IMG/VR virus record: IMGVR_UViG_2609459792_000007
Direction: 5' to 3' (one strand)
DNA length: 64,000 bases
Source of the DNA: a virus
Taxonomy: Duplodnaviria > Heunggongvirae > Uroviricota > Caudoviricetes
Positions 6,022 to 59,212 of the stretch are shown here, piece after piece; position 1 is the stretch's first letter, and the number at the start of each line of letters is the position of its first letter. The translations under genes were made by a program, and so were the position numbers. The notes beneath the pieces are model-generated. The model ran no database searches, was not told the DNA's origin, and saw nothing but the letters and a program-made list of their open reading frames with translations.

Positions 6022-6504
6022 ATGAATTTTATCGCTACTGTAAACGCACCCGCACATGGCAATATCGCTGTAACGTTCTCTGACATTGAAAAACGAGTAC
6101 TTGGTGCATGGCGCGACAATGAGACGGTAGAACTGTCAGCACAAGAAAAATGCATTATTGCACGCGACATCATTGGCAATCGTCGTTACTCGCGGGTATT
6201 TGAGAAAGCGTATGTGGTAAATTCTGGGTTCGGAACGTTCGTCTTTCCGGTGCGCTCCGGGCGATTCTGCCAGTCCAAGCTGATTGAGTTCGCTACGCAG
6301 ATTTCTGTCTGGATTAAAACTCAATCGTCGTTCAAATTTTCCGACGATGAAGCAGTATCGCAGGGGATGCGGATCGCCAACAATGCGATTAAATGCAAAA
6401 ACATTACGTATACCGCTGGCGTTGACACATGGAAACTGTTTTGCGCTAACTTTATGCTGAATGTATACGCAAGCAACCGCATCCACATCCTTGATGGCGT
6501 GTAA
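6022..6504 (+). CDS. hypothetical protein (160 aa)
   Basis: ATG with RBS aaggaa; preceded by promoter/operator module. Confidence 0.65.
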   Translation: MNFIATVNAPAHGNIAVTFSDIEKRVLGAWRDNETVELSAQEKCIIARDIIGNRRYSRVFEKAYVVNSGFGTFVFPVRSGRFCQSKLIEFATQISVWIKTQSSFKFSDDEAVSQGMRIANNAIKCKNITYTAGVDTWKLFCANFMLNVYASNRIHILDGV

Positions 6505-6513
6505 CTGAGAAGA

Positions 6514-6535
6514 GGGCCAGAAACGGCCCTTTCTC
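6514..6535 (+). terminator. hairpin terminator
   Basis: gggcc-agaaac-ggccc followed by tttctc. Confidence 0.6.
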
Positions 6536-6553
6536 TATAGCCACCAGCTGCCG

Positions 6554-6633
6554 CAGGGAAATTTTCAGAAACGGCGAGGAACGTATTCATGAGCCGACGG
6601 GAAACGGCCAGGATTTTTTCGGGAAACGGCTGC
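6554..6633. repeat. second iteron-like cluster TTTTC(A/G)GGAAACGGC
   Basis: cagaaacggcgagg 6566, cgggaaacggccagg 6598, cgggaaacggctgc 6620; last two exactly 22 bp apart. Confidence 0.55.
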
Positions 6634-7088
6634 ATTCGCCTTTATGTAGAAAAAACATCGGGAAGCTGGTGGAATCCAACCAGCGGTTGTCGGACAGGCG
6701 AGCGGGGAAAATTATGATGACTTTCGTCGCCTGATACATCCAGATTTCTTTCGTAGCGTAATCACATACGTGATTAAGTGGTGTGATTATGTGAAAAATC
6801 ACGCGCACATAATACGCGAGCGGACACAGAACAACACAAAATGCCGATCCGCGCCGACAAATAAACGCGGATCACATAGCAAGACTAAAAGCCAATGATT
6901 AACCATACGCTATAGCGCAATATAACGCGTTTTAAGCGCGTTAATGTGTTAAGTAATGGGTATGTACTGGCAAGGATATAAAAGCGCGTCTATGGCGTTA
7001 TTTTGGCGCTTATTTTTATGTTGTTGGAGTGAGTTAAAGACAATAAAAAACGCCCCATCATGGGCGGGTTATGGGGGGAGTATTGAAA

Positions 7089-7128
7089 AAAAAAAAAGCG
7101 CCCATGGGGGGCGCTCGATTTTATTTGT
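7089..7128. terminator. bidirectional hairpin terminator
   Basis: A-run, gcgccc-catgg-ggggcgc, T-run; ends the minus-strand 8274-7121 operon. Confidence 0.7.
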
Positions 7129-7351
7129 GTAAACTGATTTTAAATCCCATTTCTACAAACGCTTTTAACATTAAAAATATATCAGCGTCGTTCACGTCTG
7201 CTTTTTTTCGCTCCTGGTCGCTCAATAAATCAATTTTACGCGTTGTTTCATCGATAAACTCGACTGCGCGCCCAGCGTAACCAGCGATCCCAGCGATGCG
7301 ATTAACATAATATTCGTTATGGACGTTAACGCCAGCGATAAGAACAAACAT
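7121..7351 (-). CDS. hypothetical protein (76 aa)
   Basis: ORF in AT-rich minus-strand block. Confidence 0.4.
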   Translation of the reverse strand: MFVLIAGVNVHNEYYVNRIAGIAGYAGRAVEFIDETTRKIDLLSDQERKKADVNDADIFLMLKAFVEMGFKISLHK

Positions 7352-7371
7352 GATTAAGCTCCTTAAAAAAA

Positions 7372-7620
7372 TTAAATAGAATTTTGAAGTTTTCCGATTA
7401 ATGCGCTTAAACGTAAGTATTCACGTTTGCGCTTGCAATCTCGCTTGCTGTTAAGCAAATCAGAAAACGTAAAATTTAATTGGTCGCGTTGCGCGATTAA
7501 ATCATCGATTAATTCTAGTTTATAAGCGCGATACTTTGCGCGATATTCCGCGCGGATCTTGTCATAGCTGACCATTTTCAAAGCTCCTTTAAAGCGCCCA
7601 TAGTGGGCGCTTGATTCCAT
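7372..7620 (-). CDS. hypothetical protein (start uncertain)
   Basis: ORF in AT-rich minus-strand block; K/R-rich. Confidence 0.4.
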   Translation of the reverse strand: MESSAHYGRFKGALKMVSYDKIRAEYRAKYRAYKLELIDDLIAQRDQLNFTFSDLLNSKRDCKRKREYLRLSALIGKLQNSI

Positions 7621-7623
7621 TAA

Positions 7624-8274
7624 TTACGCTTTGAAAGCATCAGCTAAATAATTGTAGAAATCATTTTTAATGAAGCGATATTGCTGAGTACCAGCTTTCG
7701 CGCTCCCAGCTCCTTTGACTTTTTCAACAAGTCCAAGACGTTCGCAAAGATTGATCAACTGGTTGGCTTGAGTATAGCCAGCGTCCAATTTAATTTCACA
7801 CGCTTTTTTAGCTTCATTCATTAAATCGAAAACAGCGCCATTAGTGAACGTGTCGATCTCGTCGTTAATCATATCGATTAAAGCGAATACACGAGATCCT
7901 GACATATCAGCGACGGAATAAACACATTTGCCAGCTTTAATGGATTTAACCAGATAAACCAGTTTTTCCAGAGAATAACTATTAGTCATTGCATCACGGA
8001 AAAATACTTCTGGCGCTTGTTTGCTTGCTTTAATCGCATAGTAGAAAACAGAGCATAATTTTTCGTCTTCTACAGCGTTTACAACGTTGTTGATGAAGTA
8101 AGCAAGTTTAGTGGTCGCAGCTTGCATATTTGCTTTGTCTGCTTTAGTGTGCGTACCATTTTTATAATGTTCATTATATGTTTGAGTTGCCAGATCTGCT
8201 TTTTCGCGCAGTTCATCGGATACAATGGAAGCAGCTTCAACGATGGATTTTTTAGAAATGATAATGTTAGCCAT
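7624..8274 (-). CDS. hypothetical protein (216 aa)
   Basis: Long ORF in AT-rich block; no recognisable motif. Confidence 0.6.
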   Translation of the reverse strand: MANIIISKKSIVEAASIVSDELREKADLATQTYNEHYKNGTHTKADKANMQAATTKLAYFINNVVNAVEDEKLCSVFYYAIKASKQAPEVFFRDAMTNSYSLEKLVYLVKSIKAGKCVYSVADMSGSRVFALIDMINDEIDTFTNGAVFDLMNEAKKACEIKLDAGYTQANQLINLCERLGLVEKVKGAGSAKAGTQQYRFIKNDFYNYLADAFKA

Positions 8275-8558
8275 GATAATTTTTCCTTATGTAAATTTAA
8301 AATTTATTGTCGTTAGCGTCTTCGCTTTCGACGAGTTCAATTATCGATATGCGAAAAAAGATTGCAAGTGTTTTTTTTAAATTTTTTTGCAGGGATGAAA
8401 GTCCTAGAAATAAAAGCGAGATCGTCGAAGGTGTTCCCTAAATAAATAATTGATTGCGGCTTTAGACCTTATATATATTTAGGTTATTTGATTTGTAGAT
8501 ATAAAGAAGTGATGTGAAAAATAATAACCGGACTTAGCCGGTTATTAACCTTATAGAT

Positions 8559-8867
8559 TTATTGAACAGACTCTACAGCCTTACGATTGGTGTCAAATAG
8601 CGCATCAACGAACTGTGCCGATGACTCGCTAGATTCGCAATCCAACATTGCCCGTTCTTCATTTGCCACTTTCTTACACAGTTCCACATTCTCACCTATC
8701 GCTTTTCCTGCTTTTACGGCTGCCGAAAATTGATACATGCAAACTGATACATTCTGAGACGTTGAGCACACGTCATTCATCAGCGACTGAATGACAGGCT
8801 TATAGTCCATTGCATTTGCCGCAACTGAGCAAAGTAAAAATAATGGTGGTAACAATATCGATTTCAT
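8559..8867 (-). CDS. secreted cysteine-containing protein with N-terminal signal peptide
   Basis: MKSILLPPLFLLCSVAANA signal-peptide-like N-terminus; followed on minus strand by a terminator hairpin at 8523-8546. Confidence 0.55.
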   Translation of the reverse strand: MKSILLPPLFLLCSVAANAMDYKPVIQSLMNDVCSTSQNVSVCMYQFSAAVKAGKAIGENVELCKKVANEERAMLDCESSESSAQFVDALFDTNRKAVESVQ

Positions 8868-8870
8868 AAC

Positions 8871-9395
8871 TCAAAAAGGCAAAATTCGTTCAACCCAATC
8901 GAACAAAACAACTATTTTTCTACCGTTCTCGACACGTAGTGTAACCTGACAAGCATCTGCGCCTGCTGACACCCCCTCAATTTCACGGCCATCCGCCATG
9001 TACACCCTTATAGATTTGTTTGCTTTGTAGGCTTGGTTGCAAATTGCAAAAAAATCGCGGCGTGATGGCCGATTATCGACATAATCAGGGTGAACTGTTA
9101 GTCGACCTTTGAAATCGTGAGCGATACTGTCAACCACACCTGATTCAATTGTACTAATGCGTTCAAGTGGGAGCCTTATACGATTTTCTTTGTCAAAAGG
9201 GGCTGGGCAAAGGTCAACTTTGTTACGAGATGGCATGAGGCCATAAACGTACATGCAAAACGCCTGGCCATCTTCGAGAGTGACCCTTACAGGAATTTGT
9301 TCTCTGCGCCAGAACATCAGTAGTTTTTCAACGTTAGTGTAATCTCGCGGCCAGAGTTCAGCTTGGATACCGTAGGTAATATCTTTGGTTGTCAT
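8871..9395 (-). CDS. hypothetical protein
   Basis: ORF; likely start MTTKD at 9395 overlapping upstream stop. Confidence 0.5.
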   Translation of the reverse strand: MTTKDITYGIQAELWPRDYTNVEKLLMFWRREQIPVRVTLEDGQAFCMYVYGLMPSRNKVDLCPAPFDKENRIRLPLERISTIESGVVDSIAHDFKGRLTVHPDYVDNRPSRRDFFAICNQAYKANKSIRVYMADGREIEGVSAGADACQVTLRVENGRKIVVLFDWVERILPF

Positions 9396-9399
9396 GTCA

Positions 9400-9822
9400 T
9401 CACAGAGTTGTTGGCAGAATGTCGATGTCACCAGAATTGCTGGTGAACACCCTGAACGCTTTTGTGTCTCCATTCTTCAGAGTCGTTTCTCGCTCTTGAC
9501 GAGCGGGGTTTAGAGCACATAAACCTGCACCTTCAAGAGATGCACCCACAATTAATTCTCCGGCATTTAAATGGAAAGTCGCTTTTTCGCCTGTAGCCAG
9601 TTTTGCGACAGTTTCGCCATTGATGAAAATGGAAGCATCACATCCAGCTCCTACAAAACCTGTGTCTCTCATTACCACCAACGTAGCTGGCGCTGCGCTT
9701 TGATACTTGAACACTTTGGCCTGCGGTGCTGGTTTGGCGTCATGGATTGATATTGGACGTGATTGGCACGCGGTAAGCATCAACACTGGTAACGTTAGTA
9801 GAGGGAGAAGCGAGTATTTCAT
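9400..9822 (-). CDS. putative lipoprotein
   Basis: MKYSLLPLLTLPVLMLTAC: signal peptide with lipobox LTAC. Confidence 0.6.
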   Translation of the reverse strand: MKYSLLPLLTLPVLMLTACQSRPISIHDAKPAPQAKVFKYQSAAPATLVVMRDTGFVGAGCDASIFINGETVAKLATGEKATFHLNAGELIVGASLEGAGLCALNPARQERETTLKNGDTKAFRVFTSNSGDIDILPTTL

Positions 9823-9890
9823 GATAGTTTTAGAACAGAAAGTGAACAGTATGGGAGACTTCATCTTTGTCTCCCTAATTGATAGCGTGA

Positions 9891-10169
9891 TTATTTTAAT
9901 CTGCTTAATAGCGTTTCGAGATCTTCCTTTGTCATATTAGAGTTCTCATAGATACGCATGATTTTCTCACGAGTCTTAGCGGAAGCCCCGACAGAAGATA
10001 TAACCTTGTCAAAGTCGGCCATTGTCAATTGTTCCAGAATGGTATTTATGACTTCAGCCTTAGACATTTTGATATTTTTTTCTTTTAGTTTCACTTGAAA
10101 CTTTCCAAGTTTGTCATTGGCCTTATCAGACAATGCTACCTGACAGTAAGTTGTTTTCTTTTCACTCAT
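9891..10169 (-). CDS. hypothetical protein (92 aa)
   Basis: ORF directly downstream of helicase gene on minus strand. Confidence 0.5.
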   Translation of the reverse strand: MSEKKTTYCQVALSDKANDKLGKFQVKLKEKNIKMSKAEVINTILEQLTMADFDKVISSVGASAKTREKIMRIYENSNMTKEDLETLLSRLK

Positions 10170-10171
10170 AA

Positions 10172-11731
10172 CTAATCTCGTTTCAGAACTCCAAAATCGA
10201 ATGCTCCATCAATAGGCAATACACCTTCTGCAAAGCCAGGTGTGGTGTCGATGATGTGTTTTCGCTCATAAGAGTGAGACAACAGGTATTTGTTGCTAAT
10301 GTCAATGAAATCAGTGATAAAACACACGTTTGCCTGATTTTTTTTGGCTCGTAAGCCACGACCGACACGCTGTCTCATTTCAACTTCTGCTTTCCCACCA
10401 CCAGCAAGAATGACCGCACCAACGCTTGGCACATCAACACCAACATCCAGAATAGTCGAGCCTATTAAAACATCTATTTCACCAGACGCTAAACTATTCA
10501 GCTTTGCTTGCCTTGTCGTCTGGTTAGATTCCCCATAGATGAAATCAACTTTAAGACCTGACTCCTTCATCATCTCCATCAGGATTTGCCCGTGGCGTTT
10601 AAGACGAACCAGAGTCATGCAGTTGAGTGAATGTTGCTTATAAAGCAATGCCTCGCGCACTATGGCCTCGTTACGTCCCAAATTATACACGATCCCCAAC
10701 TGATAAGCCTTTTGGTAGGCGGTGCCCATACCAACTCTAAAATTGAGGTGTTTGTTGGCAAGTTCGGCCTTGATTCTGGCCTCGTCTGGCTTGTAGGCAA
10801 CTTTATGATAAAGGAAGTACGGCTTTGCCAGAATGCCTCGATCAATCAGGTACTTTTCTGTGACTTTAATTTCAATTCGCCCGGCCACCGCCATCAGGCG
10901 CATGTTGGCTTCCGTCGAATCCTTCATGAACGGCGTGGCTGTAAGCGCCAGACGATAGTCTGCGTTCACACATAATCTGGCAATGTCATAGAAATTAGAG
11001 CCTGAAGACTCATGCGCTTCTTCCAGAATAAGCAGAGACACACTTGAAAGGAAGCGTTTCACCAACTCCCGACGTTTGAGGTGGTAGCTCTTTTTATCTG
11101 GTGTTGCATCGCGTGGTGGTTCTTCAAGGAAACTTGCCAGAGTTTGAACTGTAGCGACGTTGATATGTCGTGATACCTGGAACTCACCCGAGCCAATGAC
11201 TCCAACCTTTTGGCCCTTTAACCACGGTTCGCCATTTTCGGCGCGGTAGTCGATGGATCTCTGGAAGTTTTCGGCCATTTGAAACATCAGAACAGAGCGG
11301 GTTGTTAAAAATAATGTCATTCGACCGATACGTGCAGCTGCTTTGCAGGCAACGTTAGATTTCCCGCCACCAGTAGCGATCTGCGCAATCATCATTCCCT
11401 CTCGAACCAGTGTTTCCACAGTCTGATCCTGATACGCATAATCAGGATTGTATGGGAATGGGTTAACCGCCGGATTTGGTTTACCAAGCGCCGGGGCTTT
11501 GTCTTTGCGGATATGAACACATTTGATGCCCGCCTTGTTCAAGTTCGCCGCTACAGGCTTGGCAAAGCCAGCAGGGAACGAGTTTTTACTCCAGTTGAAC
11601 ATCGTGCTTGTGCCCTTCCAGTCGCCAGTCTCGACTTCGTAGCTCAACATTTGCTGCACCAGTTGCTTTACCTTGTCATCTGCGCCAGAAATAAGCGCAT
11701 TTACTGCGTTAGATACAATCCGAACAGTCAT
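10172..11731 (-). CDS. superfamily 2 DNA/RNA helicase
   Basis: Walker A-like TGGGKS, motif II LILEEAH (DEAH-type), C-terminal helicase-domain-like region. Confidence 0.75.
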   Translation of the reverse strand: MTVRIVSNAVNALISGADDKVKQLVQQMLSYEVETGDWKGTSTMFNWSKNSFPAGFAKPVAANLNKAGIKCVHIRKDKAPALGKPNPAVNPFPYNPDYAYQDQTVETLVREGMMIAQIATGGGKSNVACKAAARIGRMTLFLTTRSVLMFQMAENFQRSIDYRAENGEPWLKGQKVGVIGSGEFQVSRHINVATVQTLASFLEEPPRDATPDKKSYHLKRRELVKRFLSSVSLLILEEAHESSGSNFYDIARLCVNADYRLALTATPFMKDSTEANMRLMAVAGRIEIKVTEKYLIDRGILAKPYFLYHKVAYKPDEARIKAELANKHLNFRVGMGTAYQKAYQLGIVYNLGRNEAIVREALLYKQHSLNCMTLVRLKRHGQILMEMMKESGLKVDFIYGESNQTTRQAKLNSLASGEIDVLIGSTILDVGVDVPSVGAVILAGGGKAEVEMRQRVGRGLRAKKNQANVCFITDFIDISNKYLLSHSYERKHIIDTTPGFAEGVLPIDGAFDFGVLKRD

Positions 11732-55681: not shown

Positions 55682-55756
55682 GATGGTGTAGCTCAGCGGT
55701 AGAGCAGTTGGCTGTTAACCAACTGGTCGGTGGTTCGAATCCACCCACCATCGCCA
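55682..55756 (+). tRNA. tRNA-Asn (anticodon GTT)
   Basis: Manual cloverleaf: acceptor gatggtg/caccatc, D arm gctc-agcggta-gagc, anticodon loop ctGTTaa, T loop ttcgaat. Confidence 0.85.
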
Positions 55757-55761
55757 ATTTA

Positions 55762-55848
55762 GGGGAGTTAGTCCGTAGAGGTAGCGGGGTAGACTGTAAA
55801 TCTACTGTCATGGAGACTCGGGTGGTTCGACTCCATCACTCCCCACCA
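55762..55848 (+). tRNA. tRNA-Tyr (anticodon GTA), long variable arm
   Basis: Acceptor ggggagt/actcccc, anticodon stem-loop gtaga-ctGTAaa-tctac, long variable arm, T loop ttcgact, 3' CCA. Confidence 0.7.
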
Positions 55849-55852
55849 AATT

Positions 55853-55928
55853 GCCGGTTTAGCTCAGTTGGTAGAGCGCCTGCCTTGTAAGCAGGATGTC
55901 AGCGGTTCGAGTCCGTTAACCGGCACCA
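55853..55928 (+). tRNA. tRNA-Thr (anticodon TGT)
   Basis: Acceptor gccggtt/aaccggc, D arm gctc-agttggta-gagc, anticodon loop ctTGTaa, T loop ttcgagt, 3' CCA. Confidence 0.8.
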
Positions 55929-57263: not shown

Positions 57264-58367
57264 ATGAAAAATAGCTTTGACAGAGCACGCGCTGCGGAGA
57301 ACACCTCAAAAGAGGCGATTGAGTATCTCGAAAGAGCATCTCAAATGCAGGCCGTTATGATCTCGCAGGTTAGCATTGATATGAGATTCTCGGACGCATT
57401 CATGTTATTCACTCGCTTATCTCTGCTGATAACCAGACGTCGGCCAGAGATCGCTGTTCATTGTATTTTGATACATGTTTTGCCGCACATTGCCGATGTA
57501 AAAGTAAGTGACATTAATAGGTTCATGGTGAACCAGCTGGTCAACCCACTAATACTGGATGGCAAAATTGTTATGGGCCGCCGCGTTTTCTCTCTGATGA
57601 AACAGTTCCTTAGCTGGTGCGCCTTCCAGGGGATGATAGACGTGTCACCGTTAAACGATATGTCACTAAACAAAGTTGCCGGTGGCGCAAAGCCCACACC
57701 TCGCGAGCGGAAGCTGACCGACGCAGAGGTATGGGTGTTCTGGAATATATGGGACTACTTCAATGTGTGCGCTGGTACAAAATGGGCGGCCAGGCTGTGT
57801 CTTGTATCAGCAAGACGACCTGACGAAGTACTGCGGGCTAAAAAAAGTGAGTTCAATCTTAAGCGTGGGGTTTGGAATCAAGGCAAGAGAAACAAGTCAG
57901 CACGTGAGCATTCGCTGCCTTTAAGCACATTAATGCGCACATGCATTGAAGAGTTGTTCGAATACGGTAAAGACAGCCAGTGGCTCGTGCCTTCGAATAA
58001 AAAAATCGGGAAAGACCTTCCTATGTCTAAAGTGGCAATAGCCCAGGCATTACGTCGTATTCTGGAACGACCAGAACTGATGGAGCTTGAGCCATTTACA
58101 CCCCGAGATTTGCGCCGTACTGCGCGTAGTTACTTCCCAGCATTAGGCATAAGCCAGGAGGTATCACGCAAAATCATGAACCACAGTCTTGAGGGGATAG
58201 ATCGGGTCTACGACCGGCACGATTATATGGACGAGATGCGAGACGCCTTAGAAAGTTTCTCGACGTACATCGCATCAATCGTAGAGCAACCGGATTTAGA
58301 CGAAATTGACCACAAATTCAAGGGAGATCGTCTATCAACAGAGCTTATTCGTGTAAATTTTTCATAG
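57264..58367 (+). CDS. tyrosine recombinase / integrase family protein
   Basis: C-terminal catalytic-domain-like residues (ARRPDE, DLRRTARSY, MNHS, RVYDRHDY). Confidence 0.7.
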   Translation: MKNSFDRARAAENTSKEAIEYLERASQMQAVMISQVSIDMRFSDAFMLFTRLSLLITRRRPEIAVHCILIHVLPHIADVKVSDINRFMVNQLVNPLILDGKIVMGRRVFSLMKQFLSWCAFQGMIDVSPLNDMSLNKVAGGAKPTPRERKLTDAEVWVFWNIWDYFNVCAGTKWAARLCLVSARRPDEVLRAKKSEFNLKRGVWNQGKRNKSAREHSLPLSTLMRTCIEELFEYGKDSQWLVPSNKKIGKDLPMSKVAIAQALRRILERPELMELEPFTPRDLRRTARSYFPALGISQEVSRKIMNHSLEGIDRVYDRHDYMDEMRDALESFSTYIASIVEQPDLDEIDHKFKGDRLSTELIRVNFS

Positions 58368-58748
58368 AGACTTTATGGCCTCAACAACCTTTTGTGATGC
58401 GCCTTTCTCTTTACCGAATCGCTCGTTATACGCAGCAAGAACCTGTTTTTCGTCCTCGTTAAGAGGAGCGGTGCCTTCTTTGTATAAAAATGCTGCGAGT
58501 TCAGGTTGGCGTTCTTCCAGCACCATCATCATAAGACGACTTGGTTCAATACCCAGCGCCAGCGCCAGCGGACGAACCTTATCGATAGGCAAAGGAATTT
58601 TGCCACTTTTAATTAAAGAAAGGTTGTTGGCATTTTTATAACCAATAAGTCTGGCTATTTGGGCCTGACTCATAGGTGAGGATTCAATCAGCCCTGCGAT
58701 AAAAGCAGCATAGCGACTTTCTATAAATTCAATCTTGTTGTCAGACAT
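58362..58748 (-). CDS. XRE-family helix-turn-helix transcriptional regulator
   Basis: HTH-like segment SQAQIARLIGYKNANNLSLIKSGK in a 128-aa protein. Confidence 0.7.
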   Translation of the reverse strand: MSDNKIEFIESRYAAFIAGLIESSPMSQAQIARLIGYKNANNLSLIKSGKIPLPIDKVRPLALALGIEPSRLMMMVLEERQPELAAFLYKEGTAPLNEDEKQVLAAYNERFGKEKGASQKVVEAIKSL

Positions 58749-58786
58749 TGTTACAACCTTTGCGCGTTTAATTCTCTCTGGTAAGT

Positions 58787-58800
58787 GCTTACCGATATTA
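58787..58800. promoter_or_regulatory. palindrome GGTAAG-TG-CTTACC upstream of regulator gene
   Basis: Perfect dyad about 40 bp upstream of the regulator start; related to family B. Confidence 0.45.
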
Positions 58801-58999
58801 CATCAAAGGTTAGGGTTGTAAAGCTATTATCATTTTTTTCGGCAGGCACTTGTAAGACCGAGCAAAGGTCCATGCATGGAGAAAAACTAGCCCAAAATAG
58901 GTAAGAAAATTAACTTGCATCTGATATAGATGTATTCAGTATTGATACAAATTTTAGTAGTATTCCTTACCATAGTATAAGTTAGAATGGATTGATTGA

Positions 59000-59212
59000 A
59001 TGAAAACCACTATTTCCAGCCTAATCGCTCTTGAGATCGGACACGTACAGAAATTAGCTGATGAGTGTGTAGCTGACATCCTCACCGATCTACCGAATGA
59101 GCAGATTCAGGTTGGTGTGAATGACACAACTGGCTTTATATTCGAACTTAACAACAAACGCTTCACGCTTCTCAATACCGGCTCCGGGTCTTTAGCCGTC
59201 AGAATCTGTTAA
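59000..59212 (+). CDS. possible small protein (70 aa)
   Basis: ORF in AT-rich intergenic region; followed by hairpin ctgcgcgaa...ttcgcgcag. Confidence 0.3.
   Translation: MKTTISSLIALEIGHVQKLADECVADILTDLPNEQIQVGVNDTTGFIFELNNKRFTLLNTGSGSLAVRIC

Follow-up and report, generated by a model that had tools for sequence, protein, structure and literature searches.

An AT-rich block of an SSU5-type phage-plasmid is probably a conserved transcription unit with an orphan winged-helix gene and terminator-like hairpins

We analysed an AT-rich, minus-strand block around positions 6700-8550 of a 64,000-nucleotide stretch of a tailed virus (Caudoviricetes; IMG/VR record IMGVR_UViG_2609459792_000007; the whole stretch is called the window), a block that a first-pass annotation had read as part of an acquired accessory island. 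The block is probably one self-contained, vertically conserved transcription unit of a phage-plasmid of the SSU5/pHCM2/pMT1 type, with the hairpins that recur in it serving as its terminators and with a role in the lytic phase; what the data show directly is its anatomy, conservation, base composition, the purifying selection on its main gene, the fold class of the encoded protein and the silence of the unit in one related lysogen. In a megablast search with positions 6500-10200 as the query, many ~110-kb non-mobilisable IncFIB plasmids of Escherichia coli (E. coli) matched at 99% identity over the full length, 'Escherichia phage CMS-2020a' at 98%, the phages PhiR41_1 and Cyrano at 92-95% over about half of the query, and Salmonella phage SSU5 at ~80%, with weaker matches to plasmids of Klebsiella, Enterobacter, Yersinia and Salmonella. 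From these matches we take the window to be part of an E. coli phage-plasmid of this type, an element of about 112 kb. In annotated relatives, the region is flanked by small plus-strand hypothetical genes and by genes for a DEAD/DEAH helicase, ParB-like proteins and terminase. The features of the block and of its immediate surroundings, as predicted from the sequence, are the following:

6505-7044, no strand assigned: noncoding region of ~600 bp between convergent units, with terminators on both sides
7045-7066, minus strand: terminal terminator T2, a hairpin (7051-7066) followed by U6 (7045-7050), the weaker variant of the motif
7051-7066, minus strand: the weaker variant itself, CGCCCCATCATGGGCG, with a 5-bp stem that lacks the outer G-C pair
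7086-7114, minus strand: terminal terminator T1, a hairpin (7098-7114) followed by U12 (7086-7097)
7098-7114, minus strand: full hairpin GCGCCCATGGGGGGCGC, the stem copy in T1
7121-7351, minus strand: small open reading frame (ORF) of 76 codons in a variable slot, PHROG 1585
7372-7575, minus strand: small ORF of 67 codons in the variable slot, PHROG 6145
7594-7610, minus strand: full hairpin GCGCCCATAGTGGGCGC, the internal copy (GCGCCCA-CUA-UGGGCGC), 13 nt past the stop codon of the 216-codon gene
7624-8274, minus strand: orphan gene for a 216-residue winged-helix protein, PHROG 1513 (unknown function)
8340-8367, minus strand: sigma-70-type promoter found by consensus scan (TTGCAA, 16-nt spacer, GATAAT, preceded by an A-tract)
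8425-8441, minus strand: upstream box TTAGGGAACACCTTCGA, ~60-100 nt upstream of the -35 element, unique in the window and near-invariant in six relatives
8466-8476, minus strand: upstream box ATATATAAGGT, copy 2 of ATNTATAAGGK, a candidate regulator binding site, likewise conserved in relatives
8522-8547, minus strand: upstream terminator with a 10-bp stem followed by UUUUU (-12.6 kcal/mol, z -4.0), conserved in relatives
8548-8558, minus strand: upstream box ATCTATAAGGT, copy 1 of ATNTATAAGGK, conserved in the alignment of relatives

The three minus-strand ORFs (7624-8274, 7372-7575 and 7121-7351) are convergent with a plus-strand array that ends at 6504, as the first-pass annotation had recognised, and co-directional with all genes up to 11731. 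A longer, 82-codon version of the middle gene (from 7620) has no Shine-Dalgarno sequence, starts inside the hairpin, and its start is not conserved. The sharp drop in composition described earlier is real and extends to third codon positions: positions 7351-8504 (1154 bp) have 36.4% GC, the minimum of the 64 kb (next-lowest stretch 41.0%; window mean 46.5%), the intergenic region 8275-8558 upstream of the 216-codon gene has 30.3%, and the GC content at third codon positions (GC3) of that gene, 0.338, is the lowest among the 44 ORFs of at least 150 codons (median 0.478).

The block is, however, no newcomer to its family. The 216-residue protein was found by tblastn in 815 plasmids of PLSDB, full-length in 809 of them, across more than ten genera: Klebsiella (346), Escherichia (217), Enterobacter (91), Yersinia (62; pMT1), Salmonella (49), and others that include Citrobacter, Cronobacter, Shigella and Moellerella; its gene is also present in all 12 SSU5-type phage records. 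Position and order proved constant in every annotated relative inspected, running from the helicase through a ~92-codon gene, a variable stretch, the FljA-like gene and an AT-rich intergenic region of at least 300 bp to the 216-codon gene, one or more small ORFs, a noncoding region of ~600-800 bp and convergent small genes (in most relatives including a homologue of a 160-residue protein), and the same synteny is seen in SSU5, pMT1, Klebsiella, Cronobacter, Cyrano and Moellerella. The ratio of nonsynonymous to synonymous substitution rates (dN/dS) of the 216-codon gene is 0.06-0.10 at a synonymous divergence (dS) of ~1-1.35, which indicates strong purifying selection. Its base composition is atypical (36-38% GC against 46.5%), yet the same in all relatives, where the gene has 35-41% GC as against 47-50% in the surrounding DNA. 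Since all relatives share this deviation, composition dates no recent event; on this comparison, the unit has long been AT-rich and has stayed so, which does not point to a recent arrival, and, as the composition is truly deviant, the ancestor of the family may have acquired the unit long ago. Conservation at constant composition is the first half of what the first-pass annotation had named as refuting its reading. A search for signatures of mobility in 6400-8700 (integrase, insertion sequence elements, direct repeats, tRNA) found none, the only repeats there being the terminator hairpins. Variable presence among close relatives was found for the 67-codon and 76-codon genes and for a neighbouring gene for a secreted 102-residue protein (517, 368 and 259 plasmids, respectively, against 815) but not for the 216-codon gene. 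The island reading therefore fails for the core of the block, given the 815 plasmids, the fixed position, the low GC content that was kept and the low dN/dS, and holds in part for these three small genes; judging from the sequence comparison, the truly variable part is the small-ORF slot and the secreted-protein gene only, not the whole block.

The recurrence of the hairpin, which had been placed at 7062, 7097 and 7590, was also borne out, the earlier coordinates being right to within a few bases. The pattern GCGCCC-N5-GGGCGC occurs at 7098-7114 and 7594-7610 (chance expectation 0.03 for the 6-bp pattern), the two full copies being alike over 31 nt (84% identity), and CGCCC-N6-GGGCG occurs at 7051-7066 (chance expectation 0.33 for the 5-bp pattern); neither the rest of the window nor the 48 kb that a 99%-identical plasmid has beyond it contained a further copy. 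All three have a stable, G+C-rich stem with a short loop. By RNA folding, the T1 hairpin, which begins 6 nt past the stop codon of the 76-codon gene, reaches -15.3 kcal/mol (z -4.1), the internal hairpin -15.1 kcal/mol (z -2.8) and the T2 hairpin -9.4 kcal/mol (z -1.3). A U-tract follows the stem at T1 and T2; at the internal hairpin it is weakly developed, with a tail of UUU only and then directly AAAGGAG and the ATG of the 67-codon gene, so that the hairpin and this ATG are separated by just UUUAAAGGAG and 8 further nt. With A12 on one side and a T-rich run on the other, T1 has the form of a terminator on the plus strand as well and is predicted to be bidirectional. At the T1 position of SSU5, pMT1 and Klebsiella, the alignment of relatives shows a 17-mer identical to the internal hairpin, and the T2 stem varies among relatives with paired changes (e.g., GCGCC/GGCGC in SSU5). 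In their G+C-rich stems of 5-8 bp, loops of 3-6 nt, U-tracts, proximity to stop codons and the tandem pair at the end, the hairpins resemble known intrinsic terminators, from which they differ in that the internal copy has UUU only and abuts a ribosome-binding site, and in that the family keeps one fixed stem sequence, where compensatory changes would normally let the stem of a terminator drift. The best explanation is that all are copies of a single intrinsic-terminator module and, very likely, ordinary terminators; the internal copy is probably a leaky terminator or a stabiliser of the 3' end. A mobile repeat of the repetitive extragenic palindromic (REP) type or of the miniature inverted-repeat transposable element (MITE) type was rejected, the hairpin being confined to this locus in the 112-kb element. 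With Rfam at relaxed thresholds, sub-threshold matches on the tandem terminators (e.g., Hrs1, 32.7 bits against a gathering threshold of 56.4) were likewise rejected, as terminator look-alikes.

For a survey of the hairpin, relatives were retrieved by the 216-residue protein and not by the hairpin, as a guard against circularity; this gave 80 IMG/VR and 5 GTDB loci, and counts refer to the 83 loci with enough downstream sequence. The five loci from the genome-contig scan all have ~84% identity. In 81 of the 83, GCGCCCA-N3/4-TGGGCGC lies at most 40 nt past the stop codon of the 216-codon gene, just past the stop as in the window, with an invariant stem and a variable loop and flanks (loop CTA in 63 loci, TAG in 8; TTA, ATA, CAA and others also occur); in Moellerella, whose 216-residue protein has 34% identity, a different hairpin occupies the internal position. 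What follows the hairpin varies: hairpin-67-codon ORF-hairpin (41 loci), hairpin-76-codon ORF-hairpin (14), the hairpin alone (10), hairpin-75-codon ORF-hairpin-76-codon ORF-hairpin (2), and, as a further architecture, two or three hairpins in tandem. In the 8 nt past the stem there are on average 4.26 T where an ORF follows and 5.93 where none does. In ~10% of the hairpin copies at the surveyed loci (L103-L187), the 3-nt loop (7601-7603 in the window) is exactly inverted, CTA to TAG on the gene strand, with the stem unchanged, as would be expected if a perfect palindrome had undergone template switching or recombination at the DNA level. Scanning IMG/VR for exact copies of a 19-mer gave 94 stretches, all at this locus of SSU5-like contigs except two; in these two, contigs of an unrelated phage with baseplate-like genes (L010, 12915-12933; L097, ~1473), the 19-mer AGCGCCCACTATGGGCGCT stands directly 3' of a small gene ending in ...SSAGTYKVS, which could be due to chance, convergence or transfer of a terminator module.

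The slot itself holds lineage-specific genes. The 67-codon gene, in 517 plasmids, is absent from pMT1, Cyrano, fekpn2511 and Moellerella; the 76-codon gene occurs in 368 (258 at 80% identity or more), and both proteins are confined to SSU5-like elements. pMT1 and Cyrano carry only a gene of 75/76 codons, SSU5 and most Klebsiella plasmids only the 67-codon gene, and the window both, which there share one hairpin pair. The label 'MIT family metal ion transporter / CorA', which SSU5 annotation and PHROG 6145 give to the 67-residue protein, is implausible, going by the sequence alone, for so short and charged a protein with no apparent hydrophobic segment; it is apparently a misannotation that has been passed on. 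A PDB sequence search with a profile of the 76-residue protein and with the 67-residue protein gave nothing meaningful, and the AlphaFold2 model of the former is unreliable (predicted local distance difference test, pLDDT, 62.6), too poor for a fold search. T4-type phages reportedly carry Promoter-early stem-loop (PeSL) cassettes, described by Arbiol et al. in 2010, and the block resembles these in that small ORFs without an assigned function are bounded by one conserved stem-loop and that the content of the slot varies among genomes. The likeness is one of sequence architecture, and it has limits: the block has no promoter per cassette (none is predicted, and there is no room between hairpin and ATG) and only one slot per genome, with 0-2 ORFs, and the analysis yielded no evidence of recombination or circular intermediates.

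Upstream, the 216-codon gene has what appears to be its own control region. The predicted promoter would give a leader of ~60 nt with the Shine-Dalgarno sequence AAGGA before the ATG at 8274, and its -35 CTTG, -10 GATAAT and A-tract are conserved in the alignment of relatives; we infer that it is an active, conserved promoter of the unit. The terminator at 8522-8547 is predicted to close the upstream unit (FljA-like and secreted-protein genes) and to insulate this promoter. Where 0.07 matches would be expected in the 64 kb, ATNTATAAGGK has three (8466, 8548 and 9005, each on the minus strand), and it was not found in the rest of the element; TTAGGGAACACCTTCGA, too, was found nowhere else in the element. 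The third match, box ATCTATAAGGG (9005-9015, minus strand), lies inside the FljA-like coding sequence, and in relatives without the secreted-protein gene a ATCTATAAGGG-type box stands directly 3' of the FljA-like stop codon.

Expression can be followed in the lysogen of E. coli LF82, whose phage-plasmid Cyrano is a close relative, with a 216-residue homologue that is 97% identical. In LB medium, log2(5+FPKM) (FPKM, fragments per kilobase of transcript per million mapped fragments) was 2.78/2.32 for CYRAN_113, this homologue, and 2.32/2.32 for CYRAN_112, i.e., essentially zero reads, and at 6 h in macrophages the values were ~5.6 and ~4.6, like those of other silent phage genes of the element, while CYRAN_114 (FljA-like), CYRAN_115 (lipoprotein), CYRAN_117 and CYRAN_118 (helicase) were expressed (PMC9928086, S1 Table). 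With CYRAN_113 and CYRAN_112 at the detection floor, at ~0 FPKM, while the neighbours are transcribed, the unit is therefore not a moron expressed in lysogeny. It is probably switched off in the lysogen and expressed in the lytic phase; a good promoter under repression fits a gene that is switched on at infection or induction. As to a possible repressor, a 128-residue protein with a predicted helix-turn-helix (58362-58748, minus strand) stands at the place expected for the Cyrano 'putative repressor' CYRAN_45 and is, from sequence and position, a putative repressor. Its divergent control region (58749-59000) contains the palindrome GGTAAGTGCTTACC (58780-58793) and GGTAAG/CTTACC half-sites near 58900 and 58966, which are likely candidates for operators; neither the palindrome nor the half-sites are present upstream of the 216-codon gene.

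The 216-residue protein is presumably a DNA-binding protein with an orphan winged helix. An AlphaFold2 model based on an alignment of 18 sequences (pLDDT 84; predicted template modelling score, pTM, 0.73) has five N-terminal helices and then a helix-strand-helix-helix-beta-hairpin arrangement, in which the helix-turn-helix followed by a beta-hairpin wing is that of a winged helix. Low-significance structural matches were to the Cdc6/Orc1 lid and winged helix, TubR, RTP and MukF, and the helical N-terminal domain of ~115 residues had no informative structural match. Profile searches of the three ORFs of the block against Pfam, NCBIfam and PADLOC gave nothing above threshold (best sub-threshold matches of the 216-residue protein: DUF2250, 0.02; FtsK_gamma, 0.025; Linker_histone, 0.16), and a PDB search with the 216-residue profile found nothing meaningful, so that the profile searches which the first-pass annotation had suggested led only to PHROG 1513, a family without an assigned function. 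An exhaustive profile search of 1.84e9 representatives recovered 24 family members and no distant annotated relatives, and in a word-indexed search all matches were 'hypothetical', mostly on contigs of 100-113 kb. From winged-helix proteins such as ArsR/YgaV, MarR, PadR, TubR, RTP, Cdc6/Orc1 and MukF the protein differs in that searches of Pfam, NCBIfam and PDB sequences placed it in no family and in that its winged helix sits C-terminal to a helical domain of ~115 residues.

The noncoding region at 6505-7044 adjoins the unit of the 216-codon gene and is only a putative member of it. Four GAAACGGC units lie in this region (6520, 6568, 6601 and 6623); the 64 kb contain only 6 in all, and the 48 kb of the element outside the window contain 1. 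The boxes TTTCGGGAAACGG and CCGCAGGG are invariant from E. coli to Moellerella while the flanking proteins diverge to 34% identity. The region, especially 6517-6630, is a candidate origin, packaging site or centromere-like site, and the repeats at 6517-6630 are a candidate target of the 216-residue protein. The CGTTTCC core presumably resembles the R sites of lambda cosB. In Moellerella the noncoding region has additional repeats of its own, of the TCTCAAATAAGG type. The part specific to the E. coli lineage contains at 6759-6812 a cluster of GTGATT/AATCAC inverted repeats (e.g., AATCACATACGTGATT), followed by terminator-like hairpins on the minus strand (6874-6845 and 6818-6802); the cluster could be a small RNA or a protein-binding site. 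A search of the literature available to us returned nothing relevant on the early genes of SSU5 or on cohesive ends or origins of SSU5-type genomes.

Taken as one transcription unit, the block might work as follows. The terminator at 8547-8522 would insulate it, and the promoter at 8367-8340, within a region of 30% GC with family-specific boxes, would drive the 216-codon gene. The internal hairpin would end most transcripts past this gene, but its copy would be attenuated, so that a fraction reads through into the small-ORF slot, and T1 and T2 in tandem would close the unit and shield the conserved noncoding region from transcription. With every ORF that joined the slot, one terminator module might have been duplicated, in which case the recurrence of the hairpin would be no mark of a mobile island. 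The 216-residue protein would then be a DNA-binding regulator or a DNA-handling factor of the infection or induction phase. This scheme supposes that the hairpins terminate and leak, that the promoter is active, that the unit is expressed in the lytic phase and that the protein binds DNA.

Several results weigh against this account. Terminator function and leakiness are read from the sequence, the silence in lysogeny comes from one data set on one relative, and the fold evidence reaches the level of 'winged helix' only: in a Foldseek search of the 216-residue model against BFVD and PDB the matches agreed with the winged helix of the model, but none had E<1e-3. A LexA-box scan found nothing in the promoter region of the 216-codon gene and a window-wide count at chance, and a search for motifs shared between this promoter region and the control region of the putative repressor (58749-59000) found no common 9-mers. 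Most of all, the stem of the internal hairpin is unchanged at dS ~1-1.35 and where the 216-residue proteins are only 48-62% identical, and it is frozen while the T2 stem drifts with paired changes; a plain terminator would not require conservation this strict, which may point to a sequence-specific role or to conversion among the copies. We therefore considered that GCGCCCA-N3-TGGGCGC is a sequence-specific site, either a DNA operator or RNA target (e.g., of the winged-helix protein) or a site where small-ORF cassettes are captured and exchanged by recombination, much as for the stem-loop cassettes of T4-type phages, which we regard as unlikely, though somewhat likelier than the other alternatives. 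An invariant stem around a variable 3-nt centre in 81 of the 83 loci has the pattern of two half-sites and a spacer, unlike that of T2, the stem was kept at dS ~1 and where protein identity falls to 48%, one copy flanks each cassette of the lineage-specific slot (67 or 76 codons, the 75-codon relative, tandem or none), the loop inversions in ~10% of the copies indicate hairpin or cruciform events at the DNA level, and the motif occurs nowhere else in the 112-kb element. Every copy, however, lies just past a stop codon with a T-rich tail in the direction of transcription, the classic layout of a terminator; gene conversion among two or three nearby identical copies could alone explain the uniform stems, Moellerella has a different, ordinary terminator hairpin at this place, there is no adjacent recombinase, and the cassettes have no promoter, unlike the T4 elements. 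The bolder version, that the frozen palindrome is a cis element defining a slot for the capture and exchange of small lytic-phase genes and that the 216-residue protein is a switch or DNA-handling factor in more than 800 phage-plasmids, seems to us less likely still.

About equally doubtful is that the 216-residue protein binds the adjacent GAAACGGC/TTTCGGGAAACGG repeats (6517-6630) as initiator of a lytic origin or as a centromere- or packaging-site-binding protein. Gene and repeat region are neighbours in every relative examined, including Moellerella, terminators shield the repeats on both sides, the repeat cluster is unique in the element, and Cdc6/Orc1, TubR, RTP and MukF are among the structural matches; but these are all generic winged-helix matches of low significance, no partner ATPase or GTPase stands beside the gene, being adjacent does not show that the two interact, a distinct RepA replicon is present on the plasmid, and the literature search on ends and origins of SSU5-type genomes was empty. 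We find it improbable that the unit is AT-rich cargo without a role in the phage cycle, kept silent by xenogeneic silencing of the H-NS type in the host. Such silencing would account for ~0 FPKM in the lysogen despite a good promoter, with 30-38% GC and A-tracts around the promoter, and two matches with one mismatch to TCGATAAATT, the nucleation motif of H-NS, lie inside the block; this enrichment is weak, though, and expected from AT content alone, a dN/dS below 0.1 and the presence of the unit throughout the family speak for a function in use, and silencing is compatible with a lytic-phase role. Equally improbable is the original proposal, that the AT-rich genes form, with the secreted-protein, FljA-like and lipoprotein genes, an acquired accessory island whose modules are marked by hairpins, i.e., a cluster of morons. 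Morons, a concept of Hendrix and colleagues, are promoter-gene-terminator modules inserted between phage genes; they are variably present and expressed from the prophage. The block unit resembles them in its own promoter and terminators and in its deviant base composition, having the lowest GC and GC3 of the window, but it is found throughout its family and stays silent in the lysogen, and in behaviour the likeness is limited to the variably present small ORFs and to the neighbouring secreted-protein, FljA-like and lipoprotein genes. The latter two are expressed in lysogeny and look like conversion genes, and to that extent an accessory reading stands; it does not extend to the silent unit of the 216-codon gene, and the FljA-like gene is itself conserved family-wide. 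With the gene, its control region and the hairpin in 815 plasmids, at the same position and composition down to 34% protein identity (Moellerella), and with dS ~1 implying long vertical residence, the island proposal is largely refuted for the core of the block, for which we prefer the conserved transcription unit.

The genes upstream of the unit had been noted earlier as encoding a secreted protein, a protein of 200 residues and a lipoprotein:

8559-8867, minus strand: gene for a secreted protein of 102 residues, with a Sec signal peptide, in 259 plasmids
8871-9395, minus strand: gene of the FljA family (repressor of phase-1 flagellin), PF03614
9400-9864, minus strand: lipoprotein gene, lipobox LTAC, 154 residues, PHROG 890

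The first of these descriptions agrees with a predicted, conserved Sec signal peptide: RefSeq and PHROG call the gene with 83 codons, and the 19-residue extension is this signal peptide (MKSILLPPLFLLCSVAANA, followed by MDYKP), conserved in the relatives from Klebsiella and Salmonella. In the mature protein, four cysteines are conserved. Its gene begins one codon past the stop codon of the FljA-like gene, a spacing which suggests that the two are translationally coupled. The 200-residue protein turned out to belong to the FljA family over its full length (PF03614: 281.7 bits, cut-off 24; E 2.5e-84; all of profile positions 1-170 covered), and it has 174 residues from its likely start. It resembles FljA in matching the full-length family model and differs in that its gene is on an E. 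coli phage-plasmid and not linked to a flagellin gene of the fljB type; it may serve in lysogenic conversion, with an effect on the flagellin of the host. The gene is kept in most SSU5-like relatives, its transcription in the LF82 lysogen is higher in cell-culture medium and in macrophages, and a search of the literature available to us found nothing linking fljA with SSU5-type phage-plasmids. The lipoprotein was rightly named, as the lipobox (LTAC) of the 154-residue protein attests. Cyrano has at this position a 'putative membrane lipoprotein', CYRAN_115, which is on the opposite strand, of ~267 residues and expressed, and which we liken to it by position only (PMC9928086). Far from the block, three tRNAs at 55.7-55.9 kb were the only Rfam matches above the gathering thresholds in the 64-kb window; they are tandem genes at 55682-55925 on the plus strand (75.5, 43.5 and 74.9 bits), just upstream of the integrase/repressor region.

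SSU5-type phage-plasmids are widespread in clinical E. coli and Klebsiella, in Salmonella (pHCM2) and in Yersinia pestis (pMT1), and their regulation is almost unstudied. Our analysis corrects a mistaken 'island' call: where the window is richest in AT there is a core unit, under strong constraint and silent in lysogeny, and conserved parts can now be told apart from the variable ones, i.e., the small-ORF slot and the gene of the secreted 102-residue protein. Two conserved cis elements also came to light, namely the frozen hairpin and the TTTCGGGAAACGG repeats. Current understanding is not overturned, as the architecture is an ordinary one in a poorly studied but clinically widespread family. 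If the palindrome were indeed a cis element, the 216-residue protein would be a so far unrecognised factor common to more than 800 enterobacterial phage-plasmids, and in any case this orphan winged-helix protein is a reasonable candidate for a regulator of the lytic phase.

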